From positions 28,852 through 92,851 of the forward strand of contig JBKUJR010000002.1 of assembly GCA_046952735.1 (NCBI GenBank): DNA of 64,000 bases, written 5' to 3'. Shown piece after piece: positions 7,292-60,767 of this stretch. A program made the position numbers and the translations under genes. Below the pieces are notes generated by a model. It saw only the letters and a program-made list of their open reading frames with translations. It was not told where the DNA came from and did not search any database. The stretch is from Clostridia bacterium (lineage in GTDB: Bacteria; Bacillota; Clostridia; UBA1212; UBA1255). Within the stretch, counting starts at the first letter, position 1, and every line of letters starts with the position of its first letter.

Positions 7292-9951
7292 CAGACATCA
7301 AACCTCTTTCTTAAATTCTCAAGTCGTTCGGCGACATTGTCATACATCTGTTTATATTTTACCAGCTTTGCTTTTTCTTCGTCAACCACTTTCTGAGGTG
7401 CTTTTGAGGTGAAATTTACATTTTCAAGCTTGGCGTTCACACGTCCCAGCTCTTTTTCGAGATTTTCTTTTTCTTTTGACAGGCGTTCCATTTCTTTTTC
7501 AAAATCGATCAGTTCATCCAAAGGTATATATATTTCCGCGCCGGCTACGACGGCTGCCGCGGCGTCTTCGGGAATGCCTGTTTTATTTTCCTGGAGCGAA
7601 ATACCGGAGGCGTATGCAAGGCGCTGGAAAAGCTGCTCCGCATTCCGGATCACGTCCGCTTCCCTGCCGCCTGCTACGAATATAATGCGGGCTTTGCGGG
7701 ACACCGGCACGTTCATCTCCTGACGGATATTCCGTATTGCGCGGATTGCGCTGATGACCAGAGCCATGTCTTTTTCCTCCGTCGGATATTCCTGCGCCGG
7801 ATCGTATTCCGGCCATTTAGAGATCATTATGCTTTGCGCGTCTTTATAAAGGCTCTGATACAGTTCTTCCGTAATAAACGGCATAAACGGGTGGAGGAGC
7901 TTCAGGCATTTTACGAGGACTTCATTGAGCACATACTGCGCTTCCAATCTGGAAGGCGCCGCGTCGTCGAACAAGCGCGGCTTTACGAATTCGATGTACC
8001 AGTCGCAAAAATAATCCCACATAAAATCATATACCTTGGCAAGGGCTACGCCAAGTTCAAATTTTTCCAGATTTTCCGTTACTTCTCTGACCAGCGTATT
8101 GCAGGCGGATAAAATCCACTTGTCCGCCGCAGTGAATTTTTCCGGATCGAGCTGCCTGAAATCCGGTTCATCGTCGAAATTCAGAAGTACGAAGCGCGTA
8201 GCGTTCCAGATCTTGTTGGCAAAATTCCGTGCGGCTTCCACTTTCTCCGGAAGATATCTTTGGTCGTTCCCCGGCGCATTCCCGGAGGTCAGCGCAAAGC
8301 GCAGCGCGTCCGTACCGTATTCGCTGATAACTTCCAGCGGATCGATTCCATTTCCAAGGGATTTCGACATTTTCCTCCCCTGTGAATCCCGTACGAGCCC
8401 ATGGATCAGGACATACTTGAAAGGCGGTTCCCCCATTTGTTCGCAGGCGGAGAAAATCATACGCGCGACCCAGAAAAAGATAATGTCATAGCCCGTAACC
8501 AACACGTCCGTTGGATAAAAATATTGCAAATCCTCCGTCTGCCGGGGCCAGCCTAATGTGGAGAAAGGCCATAATGCAGAGCTGAACCAGGTATCCAGCG
8601 TGTCGGGATCCTGCCGAAGCGCAGAGGCGCCGCAATGCGGGCAGCGCTCCGGTTTTGTTTTTGCAACGATCGTTTCGCCGCACGCATCGCAATAATAAGC
8701 GGGGATGCGATGCCCCCACCAGAGCTGGCGGGAAATGCACCAGTCCTGGATATTTTCCATCCAGTTATAATAAATTTTTGAAAAGCGATCCGGCACGAAT
8801 TTTACCTTGCCCGTTTTTACGGCATCAATGGCCGGTTCCGCCAGAGGCTTCATCTTTACATACCATTGCTTGGAGACCATCGGTTCTACGACCGTACCGC
8901 AGCGCTGGCACGTTCCGACGTTATGCTTATGCGGTTCTGTCTTTACCAGCAGCCCCAGCGCATCAAGATCCGCTATGATCTGTTTCCGCGCTGCGTATCG
9001 CTCCATTCCGCGGTATTTTCCACCGTTTTCATTGATAAAGCCGCGATCGTCCATGATTTTGATCACTTCGAGTTCATGGCGTTTTCCAACCTCAAAGTCG
9101 TTCGGATCGTGTGCCGGCGTAATTTTAACAGCGCCCGTACCGAAGCCGAGCTCGACGTATTCATCTGCAATAATCGGAATTTCTTTATCCATCAAGGGCA
9201 AAATCAACTTTTTCCCGATTAAATGGCGATATTTTTCGTCTTCCGGATTTACTGCGACTGCCGTGTCGCCAAGCATCGTTTCCGGACGCGTCGTTGCGAT
9301 CATCAGGGATCCGCTTCCATCCGCAAACGGATAATCGATGTACCAGAAGCTGCCGTCAAGCTCTTTATACTCCACCTCGATATCGGAAATAGAGGTATTA
9401 CAGTGCGGGCACCAATTCGTAATCCTTTCTCCGCGGTATATGAGCCCTTTTTCATAGAGCTTTATAAATACTGTAAGGACCGCTTCAGACAACCCCTCAT
9501 CCATCGTAAAACGCAGTCTGCTCCAATCGCAGGAGCTTCCCAGACATTTCAGCTGGTTTACGATCCGGTTGCCGTACAATTCTTTCCATTCCCAGGCTCT
9601 TTTCAGAAAGGCTTCTCTGCCGACGTCTTCTTTCGTCAGTCCCTCCTTTGCCATGGCGTCCACGATCTTTGCTTCTGTCGCAATACTTGCGTGGTCGGTG
9701 CCCGGCACCCAGAGCGCGGAAAAGCCCTGCATCCTTTTGAAGCGGATCAGGATATCCTGCAGCGTATTATCGAGCGCATGTCCCATATGCAGCTGTCCCG
9801 TGATATTCGGAGGCGGGATCACGATGGTAAAAGGTTTTTTATCAGGATCTGCTTTTCCCTTAAAATATCCTTTTTCTTCCCAATTCTGATAGATTCTTTG
9901 TTCAACGCAGGCAGGATCGTAAACCTTTGCCATGGTATCAGCCTTTTTCAT
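7291..9951 (-). CDS. valS: valine--tRNA ligase, 886 aa
   Basis: Class I aaRS HIGH motif ([15 protein letters not shown]) and KMSKS ([10 protein letters not shown]), editing domain, and C-terminal coiled coil. A GGGAGG RBS lies upstream. Confidence 0.97.
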
Positions 9952-10136
9952 ATAATCCGTTTCCTCCCAATATATTGATTCATCGTATTATGATACAACT
10001 TTTCGTCTGTTTTTGTCAATTGCGGAATGCCTATTTACATTTTTCTTTTTCTTTTCAAAGTCTTTGCTACTTTTCTTTGTTTTCTCTACCCTATCTGTGA
10101 AACCGGACAAATTGTGTCCGCATAAAAATTTTTTTC

Positions 10137-10145
10137 TGATATAAT
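10137..10145 (+). promoter_or_regulatory. extended -10 promoter element (TGATATAAT) for the downstream EVE-like gene
   Basis: TGnTATAAT about 28-58 nt upstream of the candidate start codons (10173 or 10203). No good -35 element was found. Confidence 0.35.
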
Positions 10146-10172
10146 GGTTTTGGTACATAAAACAGGAAGAAT

Positions 10173-10610
10173 GTGCTGTGTTCTCCAAATTGTAAAGGGG
10201 CGTTTATGATGATGAAAAAAGAAATTGACCGGCGCGGCCAAAAAAACTGGATTGTTCCCGCAAATCCAAAATATTATGATTTAGAAAAAGCTTTTTCTGA
10301 AAGTGAAAGCATTCTTTGGAAACAGAGCAGCCGCATATCTGTCGGAGATACCGTCTATTTATATGTTGCCGCACCTGTTTCCGCAATTTGCTATAAATGC
10401 CAGGCAATTGAAGTCGATATCCCCTATGACTATGACGATGGAAAAATACGCATGCGCCATGTTATGCGGCTGAAGCTGATAGAACGATATGCGCCGACGC
10501 TGTTCCCTTTTGACAAGCTGAAAATTTATGGGATTTTTGCTGTTCGCGGCCCGCGCAGCATGCCAGACAGCCTGCTGTATGTAATAGAGAACAGAAGCCG
10601 GGAGACATAA
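10173..10610 (+). CDS. small PUA-like (EVE/ASCH-type) domain protein, 135-145 aa
   Basis: NWIVPANPKYYDLEKAF ... ISVGDTVYLYVAAPVSAI resembles EVE/ASCH PUA-like beta-barrel proteins. The probable start is MMMKKEID at 10203, behind an AAAGGGG RBS. Confidence 0.45.
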   Translation: MLCSPNCKGAFMMMKKEIDRRGQKNWIVPANPKYYDLEKAFSESESILWKQSSRISVGDTVYLYVAAPVSAICYKCQAIEVDIPYDYDDGKIRMRHVMRLKLIERYAPTLFPFDKLKIYGIFAVRGPRSMPDSLLYVIENRSRET

Positions 10611-10752
10611 TCCGCAGAATCGGCAGCACGGCTGCGCCTCAAGGAAAGCGCGCTTTGCTGCAGTCCCATTCCGATCATATACATCACGGGAATCTCAGGA
10701 TCAAAAGCTCAGTTCGGATATACTCCTGATATTTCAGTTGATCGGCTTTCCT

Positions 10753-11043
10753 CTATGCAAGGAGCATGCTGATGATTGCGGAAATGAGCCCGCCGGCAAG
10801 CGCCGCAATGATCGCCGTAGTAATCTGCTGCATTCGCTGCTTCGGCTGGTTTTCAATCGCATCGATCTTCTGCTCATGTCTTGCAAGATGTTCGTTTGTG
10901 TGTTTGAGTTCTGTTGCGAGCGTAACCAACGCTTCGTTCATGGAACGGATTTCGGCCTGTACCTCACGCAAATCGCGAATATCCCGTTCTAAAATTTTCA
11001 GTCTCTGTTCATAACGCTCCAAAATTACATTGATTTCATTCAT
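10753..11043 (-). CDS. XhlA-family protein (phage-type haemolysin/holin-associated coiled coil with C-terminal TM), 96 aa
   Basis: An N-terminal heptad-rich coiled coil followed by the single C-terminal TM ITTAIIAALAGGLISAIISMLLA. This architecture is typical of XhlA. Confidence 0.65.
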   Translation of the reverse strand: MNEINVILERYEQRLKILERDIRDLREVQAEIRSMNEALVTLATELKHTNEHLARHEQKIDAIENQPKQRMQQITTAIIAALAGGLISAIISMLLA

Positions 11044-11384
11044 ATATTTCTCCTTTCTTCGGCGGCAGCTTTATTGTAGCTGTTAATGTGGTAAGCATCC
11101 GACCGCTTTAGAAAAGTTTTTCCTATATTTTTTCACAAAACAATTTAGCGGTAGTTGATTTCAAGAATCAGCGCGCACAATAACTATCCCCTGTGGCAAT
11201 CGCTGTTTTTCACCGCCGTTCTTAAAATCAATCTTTCCGTTCGTCTAAGATTTCCGTTTTCTCTTCTGGCAGCAAGTGCGTAAAATCGGGGGGGTACTGA
11301 ATTGATATAGGATTACTGTTCGATCGTTCACCTGAAGAAATCCGCCGGCGCGAAGCAAAGAAATTTCACCGATCACACCGGTTT

Positions 11385-11966
11385 TCATGGCATTCCCCAG
11401 AACAGTCTGTTGTATTTTTGCAGCCGTTCGAAAAAGCGTCCCGATTTACTGCCGCCCTTACCGATTCGGTGAATCATCTGGTTCCAATTTTCAAGAAACC
11501 CGATCCGCATCAAAAAAGAAGCAACGTCCTGTAAAAGCTTATTCGCCTCATTTTCTCTTCCCGGCAGATATTCGATCTCGAGTTCAAAATCAACCATGCC
11601 AAGATAGTTGTTTTTATCCAGATAGAAATCGACGCCGTCGCTGTGCAGTTCCGCTCTTTCTGTGACCAGAAAGCCTTTATATGCTGCACGTACGTCTCCA
11701 AACGGAAAAGAATCCGTGACAGAAGATACGGCTGCCGAGAGTTCTTCACTGCTGTCTGAATCCGGTAAATGACTTTTCTTCGTAGCTTGAAACTTTCCGT
11801 CCTTTTCCCGGATCCGGCAGGTAACGCCGCTGCGGTGCAAAGCATAGTCCTCCGTATCGTAGTAATGATTCGTCTGATACGTCCTGCACGCATTTTCAAA
11901 AAAATGTTTGAGCAGCGCCGCATACTCCTTCTGTGTCAGCAAAATTTTCTTTTCTCTTTCAATCAT
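11385..11966 (-). CDS. CYTH-domain (triphosphate tunnel metalloenzyme, CyaB/ThTPase-like) protein, 193 aa
   Basis: N-terminal EREKKILL (the CYTH EXEXK-type signature), later ExE (FELEIEY) and acidic tunnel residues. Its start overlaps the ligase stop by 4 nt. Confidence 0.7.
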   Translation of the reverse strand: MIEREKKILLTQKEYAALLKHFFENACRTYQTNHYYDTEDYALHRSGVTCRIREKDGKFQATKKSHLPDSDSSEELSAAVSSVTDSFPFGDVRAAYKGFLVTERAELHSDGVDFYLDKNNYLGMVDFELEIEYLPGRENEANKLLQDVASFLMRIGFLENWNQMIHRIGKGGSKSGRFFERLQKYNRLFWGMP

Positions 11967-13342
11967 TTTCTCGTCCTCCTTCTGATAAGTTTTCCCGAAC
12001 CGTTTTTCTCCAGTTGATCTGCAAGTTCAATTTTAGATGGAATCTGATAAGGCGGAAGCAGCGCCCTACATAAATCTTTGGCTTCCGCTGCCGATGCAAA
12101 ATCCCCAACAAGCTTCAAGCCGATCTGCGTACCCAGCCTCGGATGTTCAAATCCGAAAGCGATAGCCTCGCGTACTCTTGCATCCGACAGCAATGCAGCT
12201 TCGATCTCCTGCGGATAAATATTCATACCGGCCCGGATGATGAGATCATCGTTGCGCCCTTTGATTCGGAGCAGTCCGTTATCGCTGATTTCCGCTAGAT
12301 CACCGGTGCATAGCCACCCATTCCGAAGTACCTTTGCCGTTTGCTTCGGATTTTTATAATATCCGAGCATAACATTCTCACCTTTTATCCACAAAAGTCC
12401 GGTTTTATTTCCTTCAACAGGCTTTCCGGACTCATCGCAAATCCGGATCGATATCCCGTTCAGCGGTTTCCCGACGAAAGATCCATAATCGGCAAAGAGA
12501 GAAGGATGCAGATAGCTGACTCTCGGGCAGGCTTCCGTTAATCCGTAAACATGATAAATGTCGGCGTCCCGGAAAGCGGAAGCGATTCTTTTACCGACTG
12601 CTGCATTCATACACTCGCCGCTGACGGCGATATGCTTCAACGTGCTTGTCTGTCCCTTTCTCATAAATCGGGACATCGTATCAAGCAGCGTCGGCGTTGC
12701 GCAAAAGACGGTGATCTTTTTATCCCGGATCACTTTAAAAATTTCTGAAGGATTAAACGCCTCCGAGTAAAATTCGATTCCGCTCCCCTTTTCAATCGCG
12801 GTCAGAAACTCGCCGGTCAGCACGGCGCAGTGATAAAGCGGCCTCGCAATCAGTATCCGATCTTTGTCACCGATTCCGAAGTATGCGGAAATAGCCCGTA
12901 CATTTGCAACGATGCTCCATTCGCTGAGCATCGCTCCCTTTGGGACTCCGGTCGTACCGGAGGTACACATAATCACAGCCGGATGCGCTTTCGGTGCTTC
13001 ATAGGAATACTTGCCGTAATGTAGCACCATAAGTTCGCCATACGTATCCGTGATCATACAGCTCGGACTGATGAACTCGAGAATTTTCCGGCAATGCGCC
13101 TCCCCGTACCGCATGGACAGCGGCACTGCAGTGATATCAGCCGCAAAGCAGCTGAGCAGCGCCATAGCCGCCGCCATCTCCGAACGGCACAGAATTGCAC
13201 AACACGTTTCACCCTCTAACCGTTTTGAGAACGATTCGGCAAAAACAACAAGTTCTTCAAAATTCATTTCTGCAGTATGCTCGCTCATTCTCTGCGACGG
13301 ATGCAGAAGCAATGAATTTTTGATGTGATTCCACAGTTCCAC
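11963..13342 (-). CDS. acyl-AMP ligase / adenylate-forming enzyme (ANL superfamily), 459 aa
   Basis: Adenylation core motifs: TSGTTGVPKG, YGLTE, GDLAEISDNGLLRIKGRNDDLIIRAGMNIYPQEIE, and a C-terminal GSGKLIRR Lys. Confidence 0.85.
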   Translation of the reverse strand: MELWNHIKNSLLLHPSQRMSEHTAEMNFEELVVFAESFSKRLEGETCCAILCRSEMAAAMALLSCFAADITAVPLSMRYGEAHCRKILEFISPSCMITDTYGELMVLHYGKYSYEAPKAHPAVIMCTSGTTGVPKGAMLSEWSIVANVRAISAYFGIGDKDRILIARPLYHCAVLTGEFLTAIEKGSGIEFYSEAFNPSEIFKVIRDKKITVFCATPTLLDTMSRFMRKGQTSTLKHIAVSGECMNAAVGKRIASAFRDADIYHVYGLTEACPRVSYLHPSLFADYGSFVGKPLNGISIRICDESGKPVEGNKTGLLWIKGENVMLGYYKNPKQTAKVLRNGWLCTGDLAEISDNGLLRIKGRNDDLIIRAGMNIYPQEIEAALLSDARVREAIAFGFEHPRLGTQIGLKLVGDFASAAEAKDLCRALLPPYQIPSKIELADQLEKNGSGKLIRRRTRK

Positions 13343-13418
13343 TTTTCATTTCCCCCTTTCTCTTTTCTGTAAATTCCTGAGACAGCGTTTTTTCTTTGGA
13401 ATGACCGCCAATGTAAAA

Positions 13419-13670
13419 TCATACCGTTTCATACAAATCACCTGTATACCTTTCCGCCAGCGCAATCACATCTCCGGCAGATATCAGATCATATGGATTC
13501 ATATCCGATTCATCCAGTTCAATTGCAAAAGCATCCTCCAGTTCCAGCAAAAGCGTTACCATGCACAAGCTGTCAAGCCCCAAATCGCCCTGCAAAGCGC
13601 TGCCTTCCGCCACCTCGTCCATGTCGCTGAGTTCTTTCAGAATCTCAATCACGTTTTCTTTAACATCCAT
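13419..13670 (-). CDS. acyl carrier protein (phosphopantetheine-binding), 83 aa
   Basis: The DSL phosphopantetheine attachment motif (LGLDSLCMVTLL) in an acidic four-helix ACP-like sequence. Its start overlaps the upstream kinase gene by 11 nt. Confidence 0.8.
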   Translation of the reverse strand: MDVKENVIEILKELSDMDEVAEGSALQGDLGLDSLCMVTLLLELEDAFAIELDESDMNPYDLISAGDVIALAERYTGDLYETV

Positions 13671-14304
13671 CCTTGAGCGCCACCTCTCTGATTTTCTGTT
13701 TCACAAGCGCATAACTTTCATCCAGTGTCAGTACCGTGGAAATCAAAACGCCGTCATTCGCTCTGCAAATATCCCGATATTCTTTCCGTAATCTGTGCTG
13801 AAGAGCGATATCGATATATCTGTCTTTTTCCGCCGGACGGCTGCGGACGCGGGAGATCGCCTCAGCAACCGGCAAGTCAAAGAAAAACGCAATATCGGGT
13901 TCTATCACTGATTCCGCGATTTCGTAAATCCACTGATCGCTTTCAAAACCTCTGGCTCTGAGATTAGCAAGACAAGAGTAAAAATACCTGTCGCTGAGTA
14001 CGATCTGTCCCTGTTCCATTGCCGGTTCGATGACCTTCTTCCCATGCTGCACCCGGTCGCTTGCCGCAAGCAGAGACAGGCTGCGGTAATCGAATGCATC
14101 ATGGTTCGGGGAATCCATATAGGTGCGGAAAATCGCCGACTGTCTGACGAAATCTGTGGGCTGCCTGGTCAAAAATACCTGATGCGCTCCTTCGAGCTCT
14201 TCCATCAGCCGACGAATTATGGTCGTCTTTCCGCAGCCGTCCAGTCCGCAAAAGGTGATCAGTTTCCCTTTTGTTTGATTTTTACGCATATGCAACCGAT
14301 TCAT
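13660..14304 (-). CDS. thymidylate-kinase-family P-loop kinase (dTMP kinase-like), about 205-214 aa
   Basis: P-loop FCGLDGCGKTT, a DRY motif (LSDRYFYS) and a lid-region Arg, as in Tmk. Its start abuts the NTase stop. Confidence 0.7.
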   Translation of the reverse strand: MNRLHMRKNQTKGKLITFCGLDGCGKTTIIRRLMEELEGAHQVFLTRQPTDFVRQSAIFRTYMDSPNHDAFDYRSLSLLAASDRVQHGKKVIEPAMEQGQIVLSDRYFYSCLANLRARGFESDQWIYEIAESVIEPDIAFFFDLPVAEAISRVRSRPAEKDRYIDIALQHRLRKEYRDICRANDGVLISTVLTLDESYALVKQKIREVALKDGC

Positions 14305-15384
14305 TTACTCCACCTCCTCAAGAAGAACGGTTCTGTCTTTAGAAAAAAATCTTTCCAGAACCGACGGTTCGGTATAGCGCAGAAGCTTTTTATCCTTTGG
14401 AGAGAGAACAATATCTAAAATATCCGTACTTCCGCCAAGCGCTCTTCTTGCCGCTTTTACGGCAGCTTCATTCACACTCTTGAACAATTGCGCCGTTTGC
14501 AGAATTGAAAAAGCACAGATATCTGCCATGTGAAGCTCCTCCGCCCGCGTAAAAATGCGCCCGATCGCATCATCAGACAGATCGTAAAGCAGCATATAGA
14601 TATCGCAGTATTTATAGAGGCTCATATCACGCTTCATCTGTACCCATGGCAGCGTCGCCGCTTCTTTATGCAGGTGCCCGCAGAGATGGAGAAAGAAGTC
14701 TTCCTCACAAAGAGTCTGTACATTCAGGTCCTTTACAGCAATCTCCTTTGCTTTGGCAAGCATTCTTTTCAGCGTTTCAATATCGCCGTTCTTGTAATCC
14801 AGTGAAAAATTCAGATCCACCTCGAGATATTTCAGCATGGGCAGATTGATCTCTAAAATATACGGAACCGTTTCTCCCCGCATCATCCGCGATTCGATGA
14901 TTTCTTTTCTGGTGGCAGGGACAAATTCTCCGCTTTTGATTTCACCCTGGCGGAATCCTGTATTCGATAGTACGCTGCCGATTTCCGTGATATCTTCCGG
15001 CAAAAGCAGCAGATCGATATCATTTGAAGTACGATAACCCTCGGGATACTTTTTACAGAGGACCGCTCCTTTCAGCATTGCATATTTGTCCGCTTTCCCC
15101 CGTAATACGCCTGAAAGATGTTGCACCGCGGCGAAAAAGCTCTTATTTTTCAATCTGTTCTGCTCCCATGCCGCTTTCAGAGAATTGCGGAATTCCCGAT
15201 TTACGTCTCCTAAGAGGTTGTTTTTCAGCAAGACTCCGTATGCGACGCCTTGCATGCGATTGAAGAAAAGCTGTCCTAAAACCGCAGGCGAAGCGCTGTC
15301 TTGCAAGAGAGCGGAAAGCTCATTTTTGTTTTCGTCCATAAAGCTGCATAGCTTTACAAACAATGTTTTTTCTTTGTTCGTCAT
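14305..15384 (-). CDS. pol-beta superfamily nucleotidyltransferase (uncharacterised NTP_transf_5-like family), 359 aa
   Basis: An hG[GS]...DxD-type motif (GYRTSNDIDLLLLPED) with the long alpha-helical C-terminal region typical of the PF14907-type 'uncharacterised nucleotidyltransferase' family. Confidence 0.55.
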   Translation of the reverse strand: MTNKEKTLFVKLCSFMDENKNELSALLQDSASPAVLGQLFFNRMQGVAYGVLLKNNLLGDVNREFRNSLKAAWEQNRLKNKSFFAAVQHLSGVLRGKADKYAMLKGAVLCKKYPEGYRTSNDIDLLLLPEDITEIGSVLSNTGFRQGEIKSGEFVPATRKEIIESRMMRGETVPYILEINLPMLKYLEVDLNFSLDYKNGDIETLKRMLAKAKEIAVKDLNVQTLCEEDFFLHLCGHLHKEAATLPWVQMKRDMSLYKYCDIYMLLYDLSDDAIGRIFTRAEELHMADICAFSILQTAQLFKSVNEAAVKAARRALGGSTDILDIVLSPKDKKLLRYTEPSVLERFFSKDRTVLLEEVE

Positions 15385-15402
15385 ATTCCTTTCCTATTCC
15401 TT

Positions 15403-15759
15403 TCAATGTACTGCTATCGGTTTTGTATATTTACCGATCATATTTTTTAAAAGCCCGGCCTCGGCAGGAGTGAGAAAGCACGGCCTCTTTTCGGAAGCAA
15501 GCCGATCTACTTTTTTCAAAAGTCCGATTTCATCCACCGACAAATACAGCCGGTCTACGGCATATCCGTCCGTCACATAAACGCCTCCGCCATACCGCCC
15601 TGTTTGCGTATAGATCGGCTCGACAGCGCTGAGCGCTTCGATATCCCGCCGGATCGTTCTCTCGGAAACGCCGAATTCAAACGCCATATTTTGTATTGTC
15701 TCATGCCTGCGCCGGCATAATAAAAGCATAATCTGCCGTCTTCTTTCGGCCGTTTCCAT
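15403..15759 (-). CDS. HTH_11/DeoR-N-type helix-turn-helix transcriptional regulator, 118 aa
   Basis: RRRQIMLLL...IQNMAFEFGVSERTIRRDIEAL is a typical HTH_11 winged helix. It is the first gene of the six-gene operon, behind a GGAGGGG RBS. Confidence 0.6.
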   Translation of the reverse strand: METAERRRQIMLLLCRRRHETIQNMAFEFGVSERTIRRDIEALSAVEPIYTQTGRYGGGVYVTDGYAVDRLYLSVDEIGLLKKVDRLASEKRPCFLTPAEAGLLKNMIGKYTKPIAVH

Positions 15760-15792
15760 TTGTTCCTCCCCTCCTTTCGTTTCTTATGGTAT

Positions 15793-15827
15793 CTTTTAAT
15801 CCGGACAGTTCCGGTCCGGATTAAAAG
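15793..15827. promoter_or_regulatory. perfect 14-bp inverted repeat (CTTTTAATCCGGAC-N7-GTCCGGATTAAAAG), a candidate operator
   Basis: Read directly from the sequence. The 3' arm ends 33 bp upstream of the HTH regulator ATG and overlaps the only plausible promoter region for the operon. Confidence 0.4.
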
Positions 15828-15981
15828 AGAGTGCTGAGATTTTTTAGGAAGAACCCCCGCGGGTCGTATCATGCAAAAAGGACCCGGCAAAATTGCAGAA
15901 AATCACCACGCAGGTGCTGCAGTTTTGCCAGGTCCTTCTTGATTTCTTAACAAGTCCGACTACTCTCTTCGGCTTAAAACG

Positions 15982-16179
15982 CTATTCTTTTATCAACAAA
16001 CCTCGATATGTTCTCTCTCTTGCGTCAACCTTTACGGTGACGCCGTCTCCTAAAAATGAAATTTTTAAGAGTTTCTTACATTTCGGACAATACGCATCGA
16101 TCTTTGAACCGCTGCTGCCCCGGAACAGGTTTCTTCCGCAAACAGGGCAGCTCGCCTTATACGCAACCTCATCTTCCAT
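15982..16179 (-). CDS. small Cys4 zinc-ribbon protein, Mu Com-like, 65 aa
   Basis: Two CxxC pairs (CPVCGRNLF ... CPKCKKLLKI) with the spacing and basic character of the Com translational-regulator family. Confidence 0.45.
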   Translation of the reverse strand: MEDEVAYKASCPVCGRNLFRGSSGSKIDAYCPKCKKLLKISFLGDGVTVKVDARERTYRGLLIKE

Positions 16180-16255
16180 ACCAGTTCTCCTTTCCGCGGC
16201 CGGCGTATCATTGTCACGCGGCGGCTAATAATTCCATACTTCTGATTCTTTGTTC

Positions 16256-16284
16256 TTGACAGAAGTTTATTTCTGTATTACAAT
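16256..16284 (+). promoter_or_regulatory. sigma-A promoter TTGACA-17-TACAAT upstream of the XRE repressor gene
   Basis: TTGACAgaagtttatttctgtatTACAAT, read directly. It lies 100 nt upstream of the XRE ATG. Confidence 0.55.
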
Positions 16285-16286
16285 CT

Positions 16287-16355
16287 TTATCGGAAGTTAT
16301 TTGCAGAATACTATATACCGTAATCGGAAGTTTGTCAACCAATAATCGGAAGTTT
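16287..16355 (+). promoter_or_regulatory. three direct repeats of TAATCGGAAGTTT (two perfect 13-mers and one 11/13), operator-like, between the promoter and the XRE gene
   Basis: Copies at 16287-16299 (tTATCGGAAGTTa), 16321-16333 and 16343-16355 (both TAATCGGAAGTTT). The last two are spaced 22 bp apart. GAAGTTT also occurs in the promoter spacer. Confidence 0.45.
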
Positions 16356-16383
16356 CTGCAAAATTTTATGGAGAGGTACTGTT

Positions 16384-16830
16384 ATGACATTCGGTGAAAA
16401 AATAAAACGGCTCAGACTGGCGCAGAATCTGTCTCAAATCAATCTGGCGGCAAAAACGGGGATTTCCGAACGCTCCATCTATACCTATGAACAAATGGGA
16501 ATCATGCCGAGAAGCGGCAATGTCCGCAAAATTGCCGAGGCGCTGAACGTATCCGTAAGTTATCTTTTAGATGAAGAAGAAACGGATCCGCGAAAAAATA
16601 TTGATCACGATATTTTTATTGCGAATGCGAAAAATGAATATGGCTATAAAGGCGCCAGGGAAGCTACGGATATTTTATCCCGCGCTTCCGCTTTGTTTGC
16701 CGGAGGAGAGCTCGACGACGCTGCAAAAGACTTGTTTTTTCAGTCTATCATGGAAGTCTATCTTGAATCCAAAGAGGAAGCGCGTGCAAAATTCACGCCG
16801 AAGCGCGTACAAAAGAAAAGAAACGACTGA
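16384..16830 (+). CDS. XRE-family HTH transcriptional repressor (phage cI/Cro-like), 148 aa
   Basis: N-terminal HTH_3 (IKRLRLAQNLSQINLAAKTGISERSIYTYEQ) and a C-terminal helical domain. A GGAGAGG RBS lies upstream. Confidence 0.85.
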   Translation: MTFGEKIKRLRLAQNLSQINLAAKTGISERSIYTYEQMGIMPRSGNVRKIAEALNVSVSYLLDEEETDPRKNIDHDIFIANAKNEYGYKGAREATDILSRASALFAGGELDDAAKDLFFQSIMEVYLESKEEARAKFTPKRVQKKRND

Positions 16831-16898
16831 TCCCGATGTTTTATCGTTATGTCTTGCGACGCTACCCTTCCATATAAGCGCATACAGGAGGATATGGA

Positions 16899-17501
16899 AT
16901 GCCACCGATTGAATACATTTCTCAAAAGGTCAACTCCCTGATTCAAAAATACGACACACGCAATCCTTTTGAGCTCTGCAAAAAACTGAATATAAAGGTT
17001 CATTACAAGGATCTCGGTTCCTCGATGAAAGCATTTTACTTTTATCAGTCGAGAATAAAGAACATCGTCATAAACTCCCGCTCCGAAAGAAGCGTTCACA
17101 AAATTCTTTGCGGGCATGAGCTTGGCCATGCCATTTTACATAACGAGATCGCGACTATGCGCGGGTTTCAGGAGTTTGAATTATTTGACTACACGCAGCC
17201 TGCCGAATATGAGGCGAACCTATTTGACGCCGAGCTTCTGATTGCAGACGAAGAATTGTTCGAACTTCTGAAGGATAAAGACAAGAGCTTTTATAACATT
17301 GCCAAAGAGTTATATGTTCCCGCCGAACTTTTGGACTTCAAATTCAGGATTTTAAAAGACAAAGGCTATCGCCTCGAAGCGCCTGATACCGCACATGCGG
17401 ATTTCTTAAAAAATGATATTGAAAACTATTGGAGCCTTCAGCCGGGATCGAACCGGCGACCTCATCCTTACCATGGATGCGCTCTACCTACTGAGCTATG
17501 A
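16899..17501 (+). CDS. ImmA/IrrE-family zinc metallopeptidase (anti-repressor protease), 200 aa
   Basis: HEXXH (HELGHAILH) within an M78/DUF955-type fold. It is the cognate partner of the upstream XRE repressor. The last roughly 24 codons run antisense through tRNA-Thr. Confidence 0.8.
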   Translation: MPPIEYISQKVNSLIQKYDTRNPFELCKKLNIKVHYKDLGSSMKAFYFYQSRIKNIVINSRSERSVHKILCGHELGHAILHNEIATMRGFQEFELFDYTQPAEYEANLFDAELLIADEELFELLKDKDKSFYNIAKELYVPAELLDFKFRILKDKGYRLEAPDTAHADFLKNDIENYWSLQPGSNRRPHPYHGCALPTEL

Positions 17502-17505
17502 AGGC
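17429..17505 (-). tRNA. tRNA-Thr (anticodon GGU), 77 nt with encoded CCA
   Basis: Folded by hand: acceptor stem GCCTTCA/TGAAGGC, D arm GCTC...GAGC, anticodon stem CATCC/GGATG with loop AUGGUAA (GGU), T arm GCCGG-TTCGATC-CCGGC, then discriminator and CCA. A TTGAAT-17-TATATT promoter-like sequence lies just upstream on the minus strand. Confidence 0.88.
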
Positions 17506-17581
17506 GTAGCTCTGATAATATAGCATATATAAATATAAAATTCAAGACCTATTTTTAAAGATCTCGGCAGAGATCACGATT

Positions 17582-18325
17582 TCATTCCGGCGGCTGGAAT
17601 TCCAGCTCCGGTTCATATTTTACCGTATCGTTAAAGTGCCACCATTCGTTATAATATCCCTGAAATCCGCAGGATTGCATGATATCCTCAAGCATGCGGG
17701 CGTTTTCTGCCGCTGTTTTACCAACATCGCTATAGTCGCGGTCCGCCTCCGGTGTAAAATTATCAAACGGCGTCGGCATTTCGATTTCATTGCCGGCCGG
17801 ATCGACGAGCGTCAGATCCAGGGCGCAGCCGCGCGTATGATTGGAATATCCTATGTTGGGATTCGAGACAAAATTACCGTCGGGGCATATCTCCCATAGC
17901 TTTCGTTGTGCGGCAACAGGCCGGTAGGCATCCCAAATTTTGATGCGATACCCTTTTTCTGACAAAAGTTTCTGCGCCTGCGCCAGCTTTGCAACCGTTC
18001 CGTAACGCGCATACGCTTCCGTAAAATCGTAGATGATCTGCCCGGTAAAATTCTCTGTCGTGGCGTATTTCAAATCGATGAATGCTTCTGGTACGTAATC
18101 TATAATACGAACAAAATCGTGCGCTTCCGGGGTTGGCGCTGCGGTAGGAGACGGCGGTTCTGTGGGCGGGTGCGGCGTCTGCGTTACAGAAGCCGGGGTA
18201 TGAAACAGAACCATCGGCGTATTGCCCCCATTCTCCGTCTGTTTTTTGCTCGCGCAGGATCCCGTAGTAATGAATATCGCAGATAGAAAAGAAAAAAAAG
18301 AAAAAATTTTATTTTTAAATTTCAT
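17582..18325 (-). CDS. M15-family D-Ala-D-Ala dipeptidase (VanX-like) lipoprotein, 247 aa
   Basis: Signal peptide with lipobox (ITTGSC). Zn-binding SNHTRGCALDL ... WWHF motifs typical of the VanX/DdpX M15D family. A hairpin plus T-tract follows the gene at 17551-17575. Confidence 0.8.
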   Translation of the reverse strand: MKFKNKIFSFFSFLSAIFITTGSCASKKQTENGGNTPMVLFHTPASVTQTPHPPTEPPSPTAAPTPEAHDFVRIIDYVPEAFIDLKYATTENFTGQIIYDFTEAYARYGTVAKLAQAQKLLSEKGYRIKIWDAYRPVAAQRKLWEICPDGNFVSNPNIGYSNHTRGCALDLTLVDPAGNEIEMPTPFDNFTPEADRDYSDVGKTAAENARMLEDIMQSCGFQGYYNEWWHFNDTVKYEPELEFQPPE

Positions 18326-57276: not shown

Positions 57277-57960
57277 TCAGATCATTTGACATGATTCCTT
57301 AACAATACATCCATCCTTAATTTCAATATGTTTTGAACAATAATCGGATACGGCTTTATCATGTGTGACGATAATCATCGTAGTCCCTTCCCCGTTAAGC
57401 TCCGCAAGCAGCTCCATGATCTGTTTCGATGTGGCGCTGTCGAGCGCGCCCGTAGGCTCATCCGCCAAAATTACAGAAGGATGGTTGATGATGGCTCTTG
57501 CAATCGCCACGCGCTGGCGCTGTCCGCCTGACAGCTGATTTGCCTTCTTATGGGCCTGATCGACGATGCCGACTTTCTCGAGCGCCTGCATGCCAAGCTT
57601 CTTCATCGCCGCGTAGGACGTCTTGTTAAAAAACAACGGAAGCATCGTATTAAACAGTACGGATTGATGATTTACAAGGCAAAAATCCTGAAACACATAG
57701 CCGATCTTCGAATTTCGCACCGAGGCAAGCTTTGCCTCGGATAGACGGCCTATCTTTTCTCCTTCAAGCAGATACTCGCCTGAATCGAAGCTGTCTATGC
57801 AGCCGATAATATTCAGCAGCGTAGACTTTCCGGCGCCTGATTTTCCCTCGACAGAAAGAAAGTCGCCCTTCTCTATCTGCAAATCGATATCCTTTAACGC
57901 CTGAAAGGAACTCTTCCCTACGGAATAATATTTGTTCAGATTTTTTATCTCTATGAAACT
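57277..57960 (-). CDS. ABC transporter ATP-binding protein (MacB/LolD-type)
   Basis: Walker A GKSGAGKST, the LSGGQRQRVAIARA signature, and Walker B ILADEPTGALD. The start is taken at MSFIEIKNL. Confidence 0.9.
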   Translation of the reverse strand, partial: SFIEIKNLNKYYSVGKSSFQALKDIDLQIEKGDFLSVEGKSGAGKSTLLNIIGCIDSFDSGEYLLEGEKIGRLSEAKLASVRNSKIGYVFQDFCLVNHQSVLFNTMLPLFFNKTSYAAMKKLGMQALEKVGIVDQAHKKANQLSGGQRQRVAIARAIINHPSVILADEPTGALDSATSKQIMELLAELNGEGTTMIIVTHDKAVSDYCSKHIEIKDGCIVKESCQMI

Positions 57961-59156
57961 CATAATTCTACCTTCCTCCTGATCAATGCGCAAGATTTCC
58001 GCCTGTAAATAAGAAATGACGCGAATACAGATAAAAACAGCAACAGCAGCCAATAGCAAATCAAAAATACATATACCGTATAATCCAATAAGAACTGATC
58101 CGTATTTACGATACTCATCAGTACGCTTCCTTTGCGTACTGTCAGGATTATGATGCTTACAAGCGACGCAAGCGCCCCGATGATTCCCAGGGACAAAGCC
58201 ATAATCCCGTAACCGCGCTTTTTAGTGCAGCCGCATAAGTAGAACGTGAGCATCAGATCCATTTTCCCGTGTAAAAACAATATGGAAAAGCACAATGTCA
58301 GGATCGCAGACAGCAATGCCAAATAGATCGGCAGCGGCATCATCTGTTCCAGTGTATCCGCGGTAATTTTATGAGAATTATCCAGAATCGTATCCGCGTC
58401 TGTGCAATGTAAATTGTGTTCCTCAAGGAAATCGTAGACCGCCTGTTTTTCATGTTCCGTACAGTCGTTAAATAGAAGAATAAAGCTTATCCCATAGCGC
58501 GTCATCCGAAATCCTTTATTGCTTAAAAACTCGCGTATTTCCGGAGAATCCTTCAGAATGATGGTATTGCTGCATGGTGCCATTATCTTATATGAAGTCA
58601 TCGCTGTCGACGCTTCCTTAAAAGTTGGAATATAATACGGGCTTACGATATTGCCAAGCAGACGGATCGGAAACGTGCCCTCGCTGCAATCAAACTGTAC
58701 ATTCTGCGCCTCGCCCTTTGTATCTATAAAATCCCCCACGGCGATCCCCTGCGGCATACCGTTCTCAATGCCTGTTTCCGCGTAATACGACTTGCTGTCC
58801 AATAGCTCATAGTCCCGCAGCATCTCCGTATCCGCAAGCAATATTAGGATTGTCCGGCCATGATAGGTTACGCTTCCGCCTGCTTTATACGCGTAAATTT
58901 CTTTCACGGCGCTCATGCCGCCAAGCTTGCTGTAAAATGTCTCATCGGGTCCCTCGATCGTAAAACGGGAAACATATACCGCGTCGTTTCCCTGCACCAG
59001 GCTTTCAAACAATCTGTCCGTTCGCGTATAATAGCGGTACGTGCCAAGCAAGTTCACGAGCAGCAGCTCGGCTATTATCGTGATGATCATAAGAAACGCC
59101 GCCGGGATCAGAATATTTTTGTAAAATGATTTCAGGATTAAAAATTTTTTTCTCAT
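57960..59156 (-). CDS. ABC transporter permease, FtsX-like (4 TM plus a large extracytoplasmic domain), copy 1
   Basis: N-terminal TM, a large periplasmic-type domain, and three C-terminal TMs, typical of the MacB/FtsX family. Confidence 0.75.
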   Translation of the reverse strand: MRKKFLILKSFYKNILIPAAFLMIITIIAELLLVNLLGTYRYYTRTDRLFESLVQGNDAVYVSRFTIEGPDETFYSKLGGMSAVKEIYAYKAGGSVTYHGRTILILLADTEMLRDYELLDSKSYYAETGIENGMPQGIAVGDFIDTKGEAQNVQFDCSEGTFPIRLLGNIVSPYYIPTFKEASTAMTSYKIMAPCSNTIILKDSPEIREFLSNKGFRMTRYGISFILLFNDCTEHEKQAVYDFLEEHNLHCTDADTILDNSHKITADTLEQMMPLPIYLALLSAILTLCFSILFLHGKMDLMLTFYLCGCTKKRGYGIMALSLGIIGALASLVSIIILTVRKGSVLMSIVNTDQFLLDYTVYVFLICYWLLLLFLSVFASFLIYRRKSCALIRRKVEL

Positions 59157-59176
59157 AGGCTCCGCCTCCCTCCGTT

Positions 59177-60256
59177 TTATTTTCTGAGCACTTTCAGCGC
59201 AGACCTGCGCGCGTAGGATATTACAAAAGGAACAGACGCAAGAACAGACGAAAGGATGACGATCGCCGTAATAATGGAGTAATCCCGCCACGCGTAATCG
59301 GTAGACGTCAAATTGAACCTTTCAAAAATACTATTATAAAAGATTTTATGTATCGCTATCGCAAGCACGCTTGCAGCAAGAGCGATAACGAATCGTTCTA
59401 AAAGCAAGAAAAAAGCGATCGTTCCTCTGCGGGCGCCTACAAGCTCCGAAATCGCATCCATTTTCCGGTTTATGGAGGTAATATACTGGATCAAAAACAG
59501 CAAGGCCGTAATGGAAAAAATATATAATATGAAAATCTCCAGTAAGTTGGTTGAAAAATACCGTATGTCATTGGCTACGCCGTATGCCGGTATGACCTGC
59601 TCCGCTCCAGGGATCGCGGATAATTTATTCATAAACGGCTGATGCTCCTCCATCGGCAGCCGTTCCGCCAGTATGATATCGATGTATTGAACAGGCAAAC
59701 GCAACGCTTCAAAAAGAGTGGATGGAATATAATAATCGGAATTGAAGGTCCCCACGCCGACAACATGGAATTCCCCCAGACCTCCGCATGAAATCTCATC
59801 GCCCGGATTTAGGGCGGAAGAACCGCCGCCCTGAGAATACGCAGCGATTACGCAATTTTCCCTGTTCTGAATTTCCGATTCCGTAAAATGGATTCTTCCC
59901 TTTAATTTCTGCCAGGCTAAGCCGGCGTCGTTGTTTTTCGAGGCAGAAATAATCTTGTTGATTTTTTCCTCTTTCCAACGGGAAGAAAAAACGATGTCCT
60001 TTATATCAGTATCCCGCAAAATTTCATCGAGCTCACCGGAAAGCGCGCTGTAATCGCTGTCCTTCAGACTGACTTGATACGTACAGTAGTAGGGGGTATT
60101 TACATGCTTCGTTCTCATATATCTAACCGTATTTCCATATATATATATAATAAGCAAATTCAGCAGAAGACTGCCCATTACGAATATACAGAAAATCGCC
60201 TTGCTCGACTGATAATACTGTTTTATTCTAGAGATCAGAAAAACCGAATACTTCAA
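59177..60256 (-). CDS. ABC transporter permease, FtsX-like, copy 2
   Basis: Same architecture as copy 1. Together they form a split permease. Confidence 0.75.
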   Translation of the reverse strand: MKYSVFLISRIKQYYQSSKAIFCIFVMGSLLLNLLIIYIYGNTVRYMRTKHVNTPYYCTYQVSLKDSDYSALSGELDEILRDTDIKDIVFSSRWKEEKINKIISASKNNDAGLAWQKLKGRIHFTESEIQNRENCVIAAYSQGGGSSALNPGDEISCGGLGEFHVVGVGTFNSDYYIPSTLFEALRLPVQYIDIILAERLPMEEHQPFMNKLSAIPGAEQVIPAYGVANDIRYFSTNLLEIFILYIFSITALLFLIQYITSINRKMDAISELVGARRGTIAFFLLLERFVIALAASVLAIAIHKIFYNSIFERFNLTSTDYAWRDYSIITAIVILSSVLASVPFVISYARRSALKVLRK

Positions 60257-60293
60257 AAGGACATCCTCCCTTTTACGCTATAATAGGACGATT

Positions 60294-60767
60294 TCACGAA
60301 AAGCCGCGAATCGAATCATAAAAATAGTGTCTTGTGTTAATGGCAGTATCATAACTTACTTGAAAGAAGGAGTATTCATACTGAACCATTTGTGGTGCAT
60401 CAATATTGCCCGCATCCGCCCAGCCGGAGTGTCTTTCTATATTTGATGTGTCAGGCGCACCAGAATAACTTGCTTCAAACTTTCCTGATGAAGATTTTAC
60501 GGCTGCAATACAACTGCCATACCAATAAGGGATTGCTTTCGTAGACGATCTGACTTTCGTAGTTTCTCTACCAATTCCAAGGAAACCATTCGAACCTTTG
60601 TAATAATAAATATCACATTCCCCATTAATCGTATAACTTCTATTAGAAGCGAAATTCCAGGCACCACCTTGGGGCGGAGAGGCATATGAATATGCCGCAA
60701 AGCAAGTGAATAATGATCCGACACATAGTAAAACAACTACGATTATAAATAAAAACGATTTTTTCAT
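60294..60767 (-). CDS. small secreted Gly/Tyr/Ser/Trp-rich protein, possible bacteriocin-like (lactococcin-972-like context), 157 aa
   Basis: Sec signal peptide (MKKSFLFIIVVVLLCVGSLFTCFAAYSYA). The mature region is about 128 aa, beta-rich, with 2-3 Cys. It sits immediately upstream of the split-permease ABC transporter. Confidence 0.4.
   Translation of the reverse strand: MKKSFLFIIVVVLLCVGSLFTCFAAYSYASPPQGGAWNFASNRSYTINGECDIYYYKGSNGFLGIGRETTKVRSSTKAIPYWYGSCIAAVKSSSGKFEASYSGAPDTSNIERHSGWADAGNIDAPQMVQYEYSFFQVSYDTAINTRHYFYDSIRGFS

Follow-up and report, generated by a model that had tools for sequence, protein, structure and literature searches.

A conserved operon of gut Clostridia that joins an acyl carrier protein and an acyl-AMP ligase to a nucleotidyltransferase and a thymidylate-kinase-like enzyme

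Thiotemplated acyl transfer by an adenylating enzyme and a carrier protein, both free-standing, and a papain-fold transacylase is known from AsbC-AsbD-AsbE (petrobactin), BtrJ-BtrI-BtrH (butirosin) and CtaI/CtaH/CtaG (closthioamide), with CcbD as a further example in the lincosamides; the papain-like carrier-dependent transacylase class reportedly received its structural definition only in 2026. Here we describe an operon that resembles such trios, found in a 64,000-nucleotide stretch of a Clostridia bacterium genome (assembly GCA_046952735.1, contig JBKUJR010000002.1, positions 28,852 to 92,851 of the forward strand), called the window throughout. Its six genes encode a helix-turn-helix (HTH) regulator, a nucleotidyltransferase (NTase), a thymidylate-kinase-like kinase, an acyl carrier protein (ACP), an acyl- or aryl-AMP ligase and a CYTH enzyme, and most of its relatives also encode a papain-fold transacylase.

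The remaining enzymes have described counterparts of another kind. PsmN, assigned to “a family of uncharacterized nucleotidyltransferases”, modifies the lasso peptide pseudomycoidin only after PsmK has phosphorylated its terminal serine (PMC6993621); the operon likewise pairs a P-loop kinase with an NTase-fold enzyme whose family is uncharacterised. In the phosphonate gene cluster family (GCF) 540, a thymidylate kinase and a PF14907 protein flank phosphoenolpyruvate (PEP) mutase, a likeness drawn from the description of that family, its gene content being unconfirmed. AbiE and MenAT comprise DUF1814 nucleotidyltransferase toxins with an HTH antitoxin encoded upstream, and the operon likewise opens with an HTH gene followed by an NTase gene. 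Finally, CapH/CapP pairs have been reported to control many immune operons upon DNA damage (10.1101/2022.04.27.489752; PMC13228613); the window holds a comparable two-gene pair, an XRE regulator and a Peptidase_M78 protein, encoded divergently from and upstream of the operon that it putatively regulates.

Gene content and conservation of the cassette

We tentatively read the window's operon as a six-gene variant of a conserved seven-gene cytosolic cassette, as one part of a model that we favour with slightly less than even confidence. The operon comprises the following features, numbered from the first letter of the window.

15403-15759, minus strand: HTH_11/DeoR-type winged-helix regulator, 118 aa, the operon's leading gene
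14305-15384, minus strand: NTP_transf_5 (PF14907) pol-beta-fold nucleotidyltransferase, 359 aa
13660-14304, minus strand: thymidylate-kinase-family P-loop kinase, 214 aa, base-binding residues altered
13419-13670, minus strand: acyl carrier protein, 83 aa, phosphopantetheine site Ser34 in LDSL
13343-13418, minus strand: ACP-ligase spacer, 76 nt, the slot of the X330 gene in relatives, with the ribosome-binding site alone left
11963-13342, minus strand: ANL-superfamily acyl/aryl-AMP ligase, 459 aa, GTG start
11385-11966, minus strand: CYTH triphosphate-tunnel enzyme, YjbK-like, 193 aa, the operon's final gene
11341-11382, minus strand: two terminator-like hairpins 3' of the CYTH stop codon, weak and from a consensus scan only

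The first-pass annotation had described six tightly packed minus-strand open reading frames (ORFs) interrupted by a single 76-nt gap, and all of them are present and intact. An 18-nt gap separates the HTH and NTase genes, the NTase and kinase genes abut (0 nt), the kinase and ACP genes overlap by 11 nt, the 76-nt gap lies between ACP and ligase, and the ligase and CYTH genes overlap by 4 nt. The six family assignments made then also hold, each being matched in Pfam above the gathering score: HTH_11 (2.1e-9), NTP_transf_5 (8e-30), Thymidylate_kin (1.1e-25), PP-binding (2.2e-6), AMP-binding (1.2e-53, with AMP-binding_C) and CYTH (9.6e-14). In NCBI the proteins are MFR1517317 to MFR1517322, from a metagenome-assembled genome (MAG), and their annotation is generic.

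A scan of 185,579 species, each represented by one genome, recovered a relative of the NTase in 145 genomes, and a collection of 5.8 billion proteins held more than 1,100. The locus statistics refer to the best 80 loci of the 145 genomes, with partner counts limited to loci of sufficient contig reach. All 80 come from gut or rumen Clostridia MAGs, assigned to Acutalibacteraceae, Oscillospiraceae, Ruminococcaceae, Christensenellaceae and unclassified Eubacteriales, and the cassette is widespread in the uncultured gut Clostridia of humans, livestock and poultry. The NTase is accompanied by the kinase in 76/78 loci, by the ACP in 75/78, by the ligase in 68/68, by CYTH in 56/67 and by the HTH gene in 64/75; the complete six-gene set occurs in 46 of 64 loci, in identical order in every one. 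Outside the island, the genes vary from locus to locus and include arginine biosynthesis, relaxase, ParB and serine recombinase genes and leucine-rich-repeat (LRR) and Big_2 surface proteins. The six genes had been taken for one unit that might nevertheless prove peculiar to this genome; the neighbourhood survey finds them clearly co-conserved beyond it, in constant order among the loci of other species. Since both CYTH and the transacylase described below are dispensable, the core of the cassette is NTase-kinase-ACP-ligase, usually with the HTH regulator.

Four loci (L028, L042, L058 and L061) carry rearranged or more divergent second copies of cassette parts, such as a separate NTase-ACP-ligase-CYTH set at 27-42% identity in L028 and two X330 genes in L042.

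It was thought at first that the ligase and the carrier protein had no partner enzyme. This is true of the window, but in 67 of 72 relatives the position between the ACP and ligase genes is occupied by a gene for X330, a transacylase of about 335 aa with the BtrH/CtaG/CcbD fold. X330 has Cys, His and Asp residues and consists of a papain-like N-terminal part and a helical C-terminal part, and its family has 412 members; its sequence cannot be linked to BtrH, CtaG or CcbD, matching neither Pfam BtrH_N nor any PDB entry. No X330 homologue lies anywhere in the 64-kb window, and the gene has been cleanly deleted from its operon.

The window shares this absence with L005, L022, L031/L033, L035 and L080. 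In a tree built from NTase, kinase and ligase, the X330-less loci are scattered, each beside X330-bearing sisters, which implies at least five separate losses of the gene. The sister species L031 and L033 have an identical 20-nt ACP-ligase junction, and the ratio of nonsynonymous to synonymous divergence (dN/dS) between them is 0.18 for the NTase, 0.08 for the kinase, 0.07 for the ACP, 0.13 for the ligase and 0.18 for CYTH; these values of 0.07-0.18 indicate that purifying selection on the ACP and ligase persisted after the transacylase was lost. The pair was used because members of the window's own species, about 0.8% divergent, differ by too few substitutions for dN/dS. Three further metagenomic samples of that species (L090, L091 and L092; 99.2% nucleotide identity) retain intact ORFs to their contig ends; L091 and L092 share the window's 76-nt spacer, and L091 lies at the identical chromosomal site. 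In L035 the ligase and CYTH are shortened.

Upstream of the operon stand two further elements.

15792-15828, unstranded: predicted palindromic operator, TCTTTTAATCCGGAC-N7-GTCCGGATTAAAAGA, 33 nt 5' of the HTH ATG
15874-15941, minus strand: long terminator-like hairpin with 25-nt arms, separating the zinc-ribbon gene from the HTH operon

The inverted repeat reported near the HTH start is real, though its perfect arms measure 15 nt (15792-15806 and 15814-15828, 7-nt spacer) and not 14. A TTTAA-N4-GAC-N7-GTC-N4-TTAA palindrome occurs in 58 of 64 related loci, 41-45 nt 5' of the HTH gene, and its arms are complementary at 10 or more of 12 positions in 37/64 loci against 16/1280 control segments; because of this recurrence and this excess, the palindrome is a conserved element and no chance feature. 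The inner N4 positions co-vary between the two arms across loci. Because arm mismatches show no bias towards G-U wobble pairs, the palindrome is more likely a DNA operator for a dimeric protein, most simply the HTH_11 protein itself, than an RNA hairpin, although the point is not decisive. The HTH_11 protein is presumed to be an autoregulator; it also matches HTH_DeoR in Pfam (8.8e-8) and aligns to the N-terminal winged-helix part of the PADLOC WYL-regulator model (2e-13), and it has no AbiEi family match in Pfam. An Rfam E-value scan of the island returned the tRNA only, with no riboswitch or other regulatory RNA, and the RNA fold of 15760-15990 has a z-score of -6.07.

The encoded enzymes and their relatives in databases

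The kinase had been assigned to the thymidylate kinase (Tmk) family on its P-loop and DRY motif, and both are found (GLDGCGKTT with K26; D105-R106-Y107). Profile hidden Markov models (HMMs) uphold the family, with 95.3 bits to TIGR00041 against a cut-off of 83.25, and the Tmk structure 5x7j is matched in the PDB (7.5e-19). In established Tmk structures, thymine is contacted by a stacking Phe and by the Tyr and Gln of an S-x-A-Y-Q-G motif. In an alignment with Tmk of E. coli and T. thermophilus, A80 stands in place of the base-stacking Phe and A113-N114-L115-R116 in place of AYQG, and the substitutions F to A80, Y to N114 and Q to L115 are fixed in 76 cassette kinases. Since the thymine-contact residues are replaced, the substrate is likely a phosphate-bearing molecule other than dTMP, so that the original assignment stands for the family and probably not for the substrate. 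Bona fide Tmk and the cassette kinase share the fold, HMM family, P-loop, DRY motif and Arg-rich LID; they differ in Ala80 and Asn114-Leu115 and in that the gene for the latter is always embedded in a cassette, of which it encodes the best-conserved protein (58-82% identity). PGAP labels the window's kinase (MFR1517320.1) “dTMP kinase” because it exceeds the TIGR00041 cut-off, a label that is probably a systematic mis-annotation of the whole cassette family.

At E <= 0.01 the window's NTase matches PF14907 alone and does not reach PF08843 (DUF1814), which appears as an additional precomputed match in two close homologues. Among solved structures its fold is nearest to the MenT/AbiEii toxins, and the MenT-like catalytic core fold with its G[SA]...RxSxDxD motif is present. 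Two single-contig proteins fuse the NTase to HTH_11 or to Amidase_2 (P0010, 453 aa, and P0041, 567 aa); they may be real or artefacts of assembly or frameshift.

The LDSL motif of the ACP is conserved in at least 90% of 60 sequences, and its NCBIfam matches, all below threshold, are to DltC (the best, 4e-9), AmcB and AsbD. The structures nearest to the ligase are feruloyl/fatty-acyl-CoA synthetase (1.3e-47), MenE and oxalyl- and malonyl-CoA synthetases, which places it closer to feruloyl/fatty-acyl-, o-succinylbenzoyl-, oxalyl- and malonyl-CoA ligases than to amino-acid-activating enzymes. Its motifs A3 (TSGTTGxPKG), A5 (YGLTEA), A7 (GWLCTGD), A8 and A10 (GSGK451) are conserved, and it presumably loads the ACP.

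CYTH belongs to the operon here, as first annotated and as Pfam confirms, but it is a peripheral member, missing from 11 of 67 loci, where surface or lysis genes follow and no replacement enzyme is found. Its nearest PDB entries are BH2851 (1.5e-10) and GBAA_1210, and it conserves the motifs ExExK (E3, E5, K6), TCRIR and ELEIEY. In comparisons of L005 with L018 and of L031 with L033, identity falls to 49% in CYTH where the NTase keeps 96%, and synonymous divergence (dS) is uneven between neighbouring cassette genes, at 0.13 in the kinase and 0.8 in ACP and CYTH. Such several-fold differences between adjacent genes point to recombination that exchanges the cassette's 3' end; CYTH evolves and recombines much faster than the other cassette genes.

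That no characterised pathway or defence system has this composition was an early claim, and the searches bear it out. PADLOC, applied to the six proteins, X330, the neighbour proteins c7 and c8, the zinc-ribbon protein and the flanks, returned only generic kinase and HTH matches (PDC-M51B and VakA for the kinase) and matches to capH/capP, and no PADLOC model was matched by NTase, ACP, ligase, CYTH or X330. NCBIfam and PHROGs likewise gave generic matches only, with no PHROGs phage family for NTase, CYTH, X330 or c7. In full-text literature, searches on PF14907/NTP_transf_5, on the four-domain combination and on CYTH with thymidylate kinase and anti-phage left the cluster undescribed, and those on PDC-M51/VakA yielded nothing relevant. 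A catalogued defence system was rejected as an identity for the cassette, the PADLOC v2 core models being unmatched. Phage or plasmid cargo was rejected as well: tblastn with the NTase gave one weak partial match in 50,697 phage records and only distant relatives (24-30%) in 72,556 plasmids, and none of 2.9 M IMG/VR contigs carries the cassette, which thus lies on no sequenced phage, IMG/VR viral contig or plasmid.

Two Bacillus cereus-group plasmids, L088 (NZ_CP043831.1) and L089 (CP016196.1), carry a distant NTP_transf_5 gene (26-30% identity) beside genes for a class I adenylate-forming enzyme, a decarboxylase, a PP-binding protein, an acyl-CoA dehydrogenase and ABC transporters, to which L088 adds HAD hydrolase, NUDIX, radical-SAM and aminotransferase genes. 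This set looks like an uncharacterised biosynthetic cluster.

The flanking island

The operon had been placed in an accessory segment beside a phage-type XRE/ImmA module and a tRNA, and XRE, Peptidase_M78 and tRNA-Thr are all found there. The flanking features are as follows.

15982-16179, minus strand: zinc-ribbon protein, 65 aa, divergent from XRE; cluster c10, with XRE/ImmA in about 13 loci
16256-16355, unstranded: divergent promoter region with repeated TAATCGGAAGTTT boxes, putative XRE operators
16384-16830, plus strand: XRE-family repressor, CapH-like, 148 aa; Pfam HTH_3 1.5e-12
16899-17501, plus strand: ImmA/IrrE-type Zn-metallopeptidase, CapP-like, 200 aa, HELGH; Pfam Peptidase_M78 1.1e-16
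17430-17505, minus strand: tRNA-Thr(GGT), island boundary
10753-11043, minus strand: XhlA-like coiled-coil/transmembrane (TM) protein, cluster c11, 96 aa; Pfam XhlA 1.4e-4, below cut-off
10643-10737, minus strand: Hol44-type phage holin remnant (c14), about the first 30 codons in two frames, located by tblastn of c14 holins

The XRE protein matches the PADLOC models RmrA, an XRE-peptidase fusion (5.6e-11), and next capH (2e-10), and the best match of ImmA is capP (2.6e-12), over profile positions 5-131 of 242 only, the peptidase half of CapP, which in full length also has a C-terminal regulatory domain. Near-consensus promoter-like sites (11/12 matches) lie on both strands of 16256-16355; direct TAATCGGAAGTTT repeats at 16321-16333 and 16343-16355 and a third, degenerate copy, all within 16290-16355, overlap the promoters and are likely XRE operators. 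The zinc-ribbon protein has weak Pfam Zn-ribbon matches and a weak match to a PHROG termed “translational regulator”. Homologues of XRE (c13) and ImmA (c12) adjoin the cassette in 12 loci each, and those of the ImmA-XRE-zinc-ribbon trio stand beside it in about 13 other species.

The ImmA ORF exceeds the C-terminus of its c12 homologues by about 24 codons, read antisense through tRNA-Thr, its native C-terminus having been replaced. The island thus directly abuts the 3' end of the tRNA, as in tRNA-targeted insertion. Across 9900-17700 no att-like repeats were found, including direct repeats of the tRNA-Thr 3' end, and the island contains no integrase.

When all flanking ORFs of 82 loci were clustered, four alternatives recurred downstream of the cassette: a DNRLRE-like protein of 376 aa (c7, 36 loci) with giant RHS-repeat toxins (c9 and c15, 26 loci); an Rv2525c/GH25-like protein of wall-hydrolase type (c8, 21 loci); a lysis module of XhlA, Hol44 holin and Amidase_2-SH3 lysin; and a separate pair of holin_4_1 and M23-SLH lysin. 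Homologues of the XhlA-like protein occur in 12 related loci, where Hol44 holin and Amidase_2 lysin follow; the holin cluster c14 matches Phage_holin_5_2 (8e-26), and in the window this lysis module is eroded to the XhlA-like gene and the holin remnant. Large serine recombinases lie near the cassette in 7 loci. That the cassette repeatedly lies next to toxin and lysis modules which are not homologous to one another suggests a functional link with antagonism or lysis-mediated release.

Several neighbours are recorded in their own right. The giant RHS-repeat proteins (for example L002, 16085-19579, and L018, 16420-21065; about 26 species) contain DUF6531 and a weak DNRLRE match and are preceded by c7 or c8; the c9 protein of L018, the one representative inspected, has no obvious N-terminal signal peptide. 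Directly 5' of the cassette in L005 (5508-9361), and also in L006 and L007, a 1002-aa protein with a weak match to RdRP (PF05183) and a 281-aa partner adjoin relaxase, ParB and serine recombinase genes, and may be a further conflict system, carried by a conjugative element. The window also holds, between the island and valS, a plus-strand ORF of 145 aa (10173-10610) that Pfam, NCBIfam and PADLOC leave unmatched and that lacks recurrent homologues in related loci. Far from the operon, on the minus strand at 57277-60767, the GC content dips (to 36% at 60-61 kb) where a 157-aa signal-peptide protein is encoded 5' of two FtsX-like permeases and an ABC ATPase; together they may form a secreted-peptide/transporter unit unrelated to the cassette.

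A proposed pathway, its rivals and the known systems

Our preferred reading, to which we give somewhat less than an even chance, is that a stress-inducible thiotemplated acyl-transfer arm and a nucleotide/phosphate arm together make an acylated, nucleotide- or phosphodiester-linked conflict product. An acyl-nucleotide or carrier-bound conjugate had been suggested at the outset, and the idea gains support from the seventh gene of the relatives with its BtrH/CtaG/CcbD fold. An XRE repressor bound to the TAATCGGAAGTTT boxes would be removed by the CapP-like ImmA peptidase upon DNA damage, a switch that may govern the cassette in some genomes, the window's included, and the HTH_11 protein would regulate itself through the conserved palindrome 5' of its own gene. 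To judge from its family and motifs, the ANL ligase would adenylate a carboxylic acid, aryl or short acyl and not an amino acid, and place it as a thioester on the phosphopantetheine of ACP Ser34, primed by a phosphopantetheinyl transferase (PPTase) of the host. The Tmk-like kinase would phosphorylate a phosphate-bearing non-thymidylate substrate, by analogy with PsmK/PsmN and GCF 540, and NTP_transf_5 would then form a phosphodiester or pyrophosphate link, moving a nucleotidyl or phospho-linked group; the order of the two steps is argued from the same precedents. In relatives the transacylase, whose papain-like fold is established, would use the acyl-ACP to acylate a free nucleophile of the intermediate. 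Because its gene is deleted in the window, acyl-ACP may there be discharged by direct attack of the acceptor, by the ligase or by the NTase, to give the same or a simpler product. CYTH, dispensable as it is, would hydrolyse a triphosphate by-product or trim the product.

Several points weigh against this pathway. Its chemical steps are all derived from family or fold. Unusually for a natural-product cluster, the cassette has genes neither for export or self-resistance nor for a PPTase. Because the transacylase was lost at least five times while the rest stayed under selection, the essential output cannot consist in acylating a free acceptor, and the dispensability of CYTH also weighs against the pathway. 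The solved folds nearest to the NTase are tRNA-modifying toxins and not biosynthetic enzymes, PsmK is HprK-like where the cassette kinase is Tmk-like, and membership of PsmN in PF14907 is unconfirmed. The conflict role, finally, rests on neighbourhood association, with no background frequency set beside the counts.

The second early suggestion, a signalling or conflict system, may apply in view of the MenT/AbiEii-like NTase fold and the CapH/CapP-like regulators, but nothing found here points to a signal that NTase and CYTH make or cleave. The toxin-like fold also underlies a different account, rather unlikely in our estimate, in which the cassette is an anti-phage or abortive-infection (Abi) system or an elaborated toxin-antitoxin (TA) system. 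Its effector would be the MenT/AbiEii-like NTase, shutting down translation through modification of tRNA acceptor ends or of another macromolecule; the HTH protein would be an AbiEi-like regulator or antitoxin, the CapH/CapP-like switch would trigger the system upon DNA damage or infection, and kinase, ACP, ligase and CYTH would either adjust or permit the toxin's activity or supply a modified nucleotide that is poisonous to phage replication. In its favour are the fold of the NTase, the pairing of an HTH gene with an NTase gene, the switch, and a distribution that is patchy and mosaic. However, ACP, ANL ligase and BtrH-like transacylase occur in no known defence system and no PADLOC model covers the set, the window's NTase misses PF08843 at E <= 0.01 and its HTH protein matches no AbiEi family, five conserved enzymes far exceed what a TA or Abi module needs, and the neighbours are RHS and lysis genes and not recognised defence systems. 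We consider improbable a carrier priming and loading system like that of citrate lyase or malonate decarboxylase (CitG/CitX/CitD/CitC), in which the NTase would modify the ACP serine with a nucleotide-derived prosthetic group, from a triphosphate donor made ready by kinase and CYTH, and the ligase would then acylate that group. Precedents are CitX and MdcG, which load an ACP serine with a group taken from a triphosphate donor, and PsmN-type enzymes, which act on phosphorylated serine; the NTase, kinase and ACP genes are translationally coupled (the 0-nt junction and the 11-nt overlap), no PPTase is encoded, and the NTase-kinase-ACP-ligase core persists despite loss of X330 or CYTH. Yet the ACP is a standard PF00550 protein with a canonical LDSL, the usual substrate of an AcpS/Sfp-type PPTase, Pfam and NCBIfam reveal no similarity to CitD, CitX, CitG or MdcG, and no lyase or decarboxylase partner is encoded.

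Two accounts appear far less probable still. Envelope tailoring of the Dlt type, the acylation or esterification of a wall polymer or of a surface or secreted protein, would explain the Big_2, LRR, RHS and wall-hydrolase neighbours, and it draws on DltC as the best NCBIfam match of the ACP, on the DltA structure 7r27 among the ligase matches (2.8e-23) and on the surface and wall-active proteins that recur downstream; we hold it very improbable, for the recurrent neighbours in 82 loci include neither a DltB/MBOAT-like acyltransferase nor a DltD-like protein, no annotated domain indicates secretion or membrane insertion (no dedicated signal-peptide or TM prediction was made), the ligase is nearer to aryl/short-acyl CoA ligases than to DltA, and the nucleotide enzymes would have no role. 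That the operon is a decaying remnant, the non-functional cargo of an eroded phage-derived island after transacylase loss, is hardly probable at all: X330 is deleted, the adjacent holin is truncated, integrase and att repeat are lacking and L035 has a shortened ligase and CYTH, but the six ORFs are full-length with intact catalytic motifs, three same-species samples are intact as far as their contigs reach, and low dN/dS in X330-less sister species accompanies repeated, independent X330 losses with the rest retained.

More speculative than the conjugate pathway, and unlikely in our view, is a new class of stress-induced conflict system that combines an ACP acyl line, a MenT-like NTase and a re-purposed Tmk-fold kinase; it would either produce a toxic or signalling acyl-nucleotide, a chemical defence or weapon freed with the lysis and RHS modules, or acylate and extend tRNA acceptor ends directly. 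If true, NTP_transf_5 would thereby gain its first assigned function, and an ACP would for the first time be seen at work in a defence or toxin system. Should the conjugate pathway hold, it would give a first functional handle on PF14907, still an “uncharacterised nucleotidyltransferase”, provide a case of a Tmk-fold enzyme recruited to a non-thymidylate substrate, and extend the papain-like transacylase class by X330, which lacks detectable sequence similarity to its known members. Given its position next to a DNA-damage switch, lysis cassettes and RHS toxins, the cassette could yield a new antimicrobial, signal or immunity factor of nucleotide type that shapes competition in gut communities. 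The natural transacylase-less and CYTH-less variants are ready-made genetic dissections, and because all carriers are uncultured MAGs, heterologous work will be required.

Set beside the systems named at the outset, the cassette departs from each. Pairs like CapH/CapP are also generic lysogeny switches of phages and of integrative and conjugative elements, the pair adjoins only about 13 of about 80 cassette loci, and in the window the zinc-ribbon gene and the terminator-like hairpin intervene between switch and operon. Compared with AbiE and MenAT, the NTase is about 160 residues larger, with additional N- and C-terminal helical domains, and belongs to PF14907 rather than PF08843; the HTH protein is of HTH_11/DeoR type and not AbiEi, and four other enzymes are invariably linked. 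Neither PsmK/PsmN nor GCF 540 includes an ACP, ligase or CYTH, and the cassette has no lasso-peptide or PEP-mutase genes nearby. In the Dlt pathway the counterparts are DltC and DltA, to which the similarity of ACP and ligase stays below curated cut-offs. With the Asb, Btr and Cta trios, the difference lies in the partners, here NTP_transf_5, Tmk-like kinase and CYTH in place of siderophore, aminoglycoside or polythioamide genes, with no exporter, and in the gene for the papain-fold Cys-His-Asp transacylase, which the window lacks and which several lineages can do without. The obligatory union with a PF14907 NTase and a substrate-shifted Tmk-fold kinase, usually with CYTH, is without match in profile libraries and the literature; taken singly, the domain families are all known, and the ligase-ACP-transacylase arm belongs to an established pathway type.

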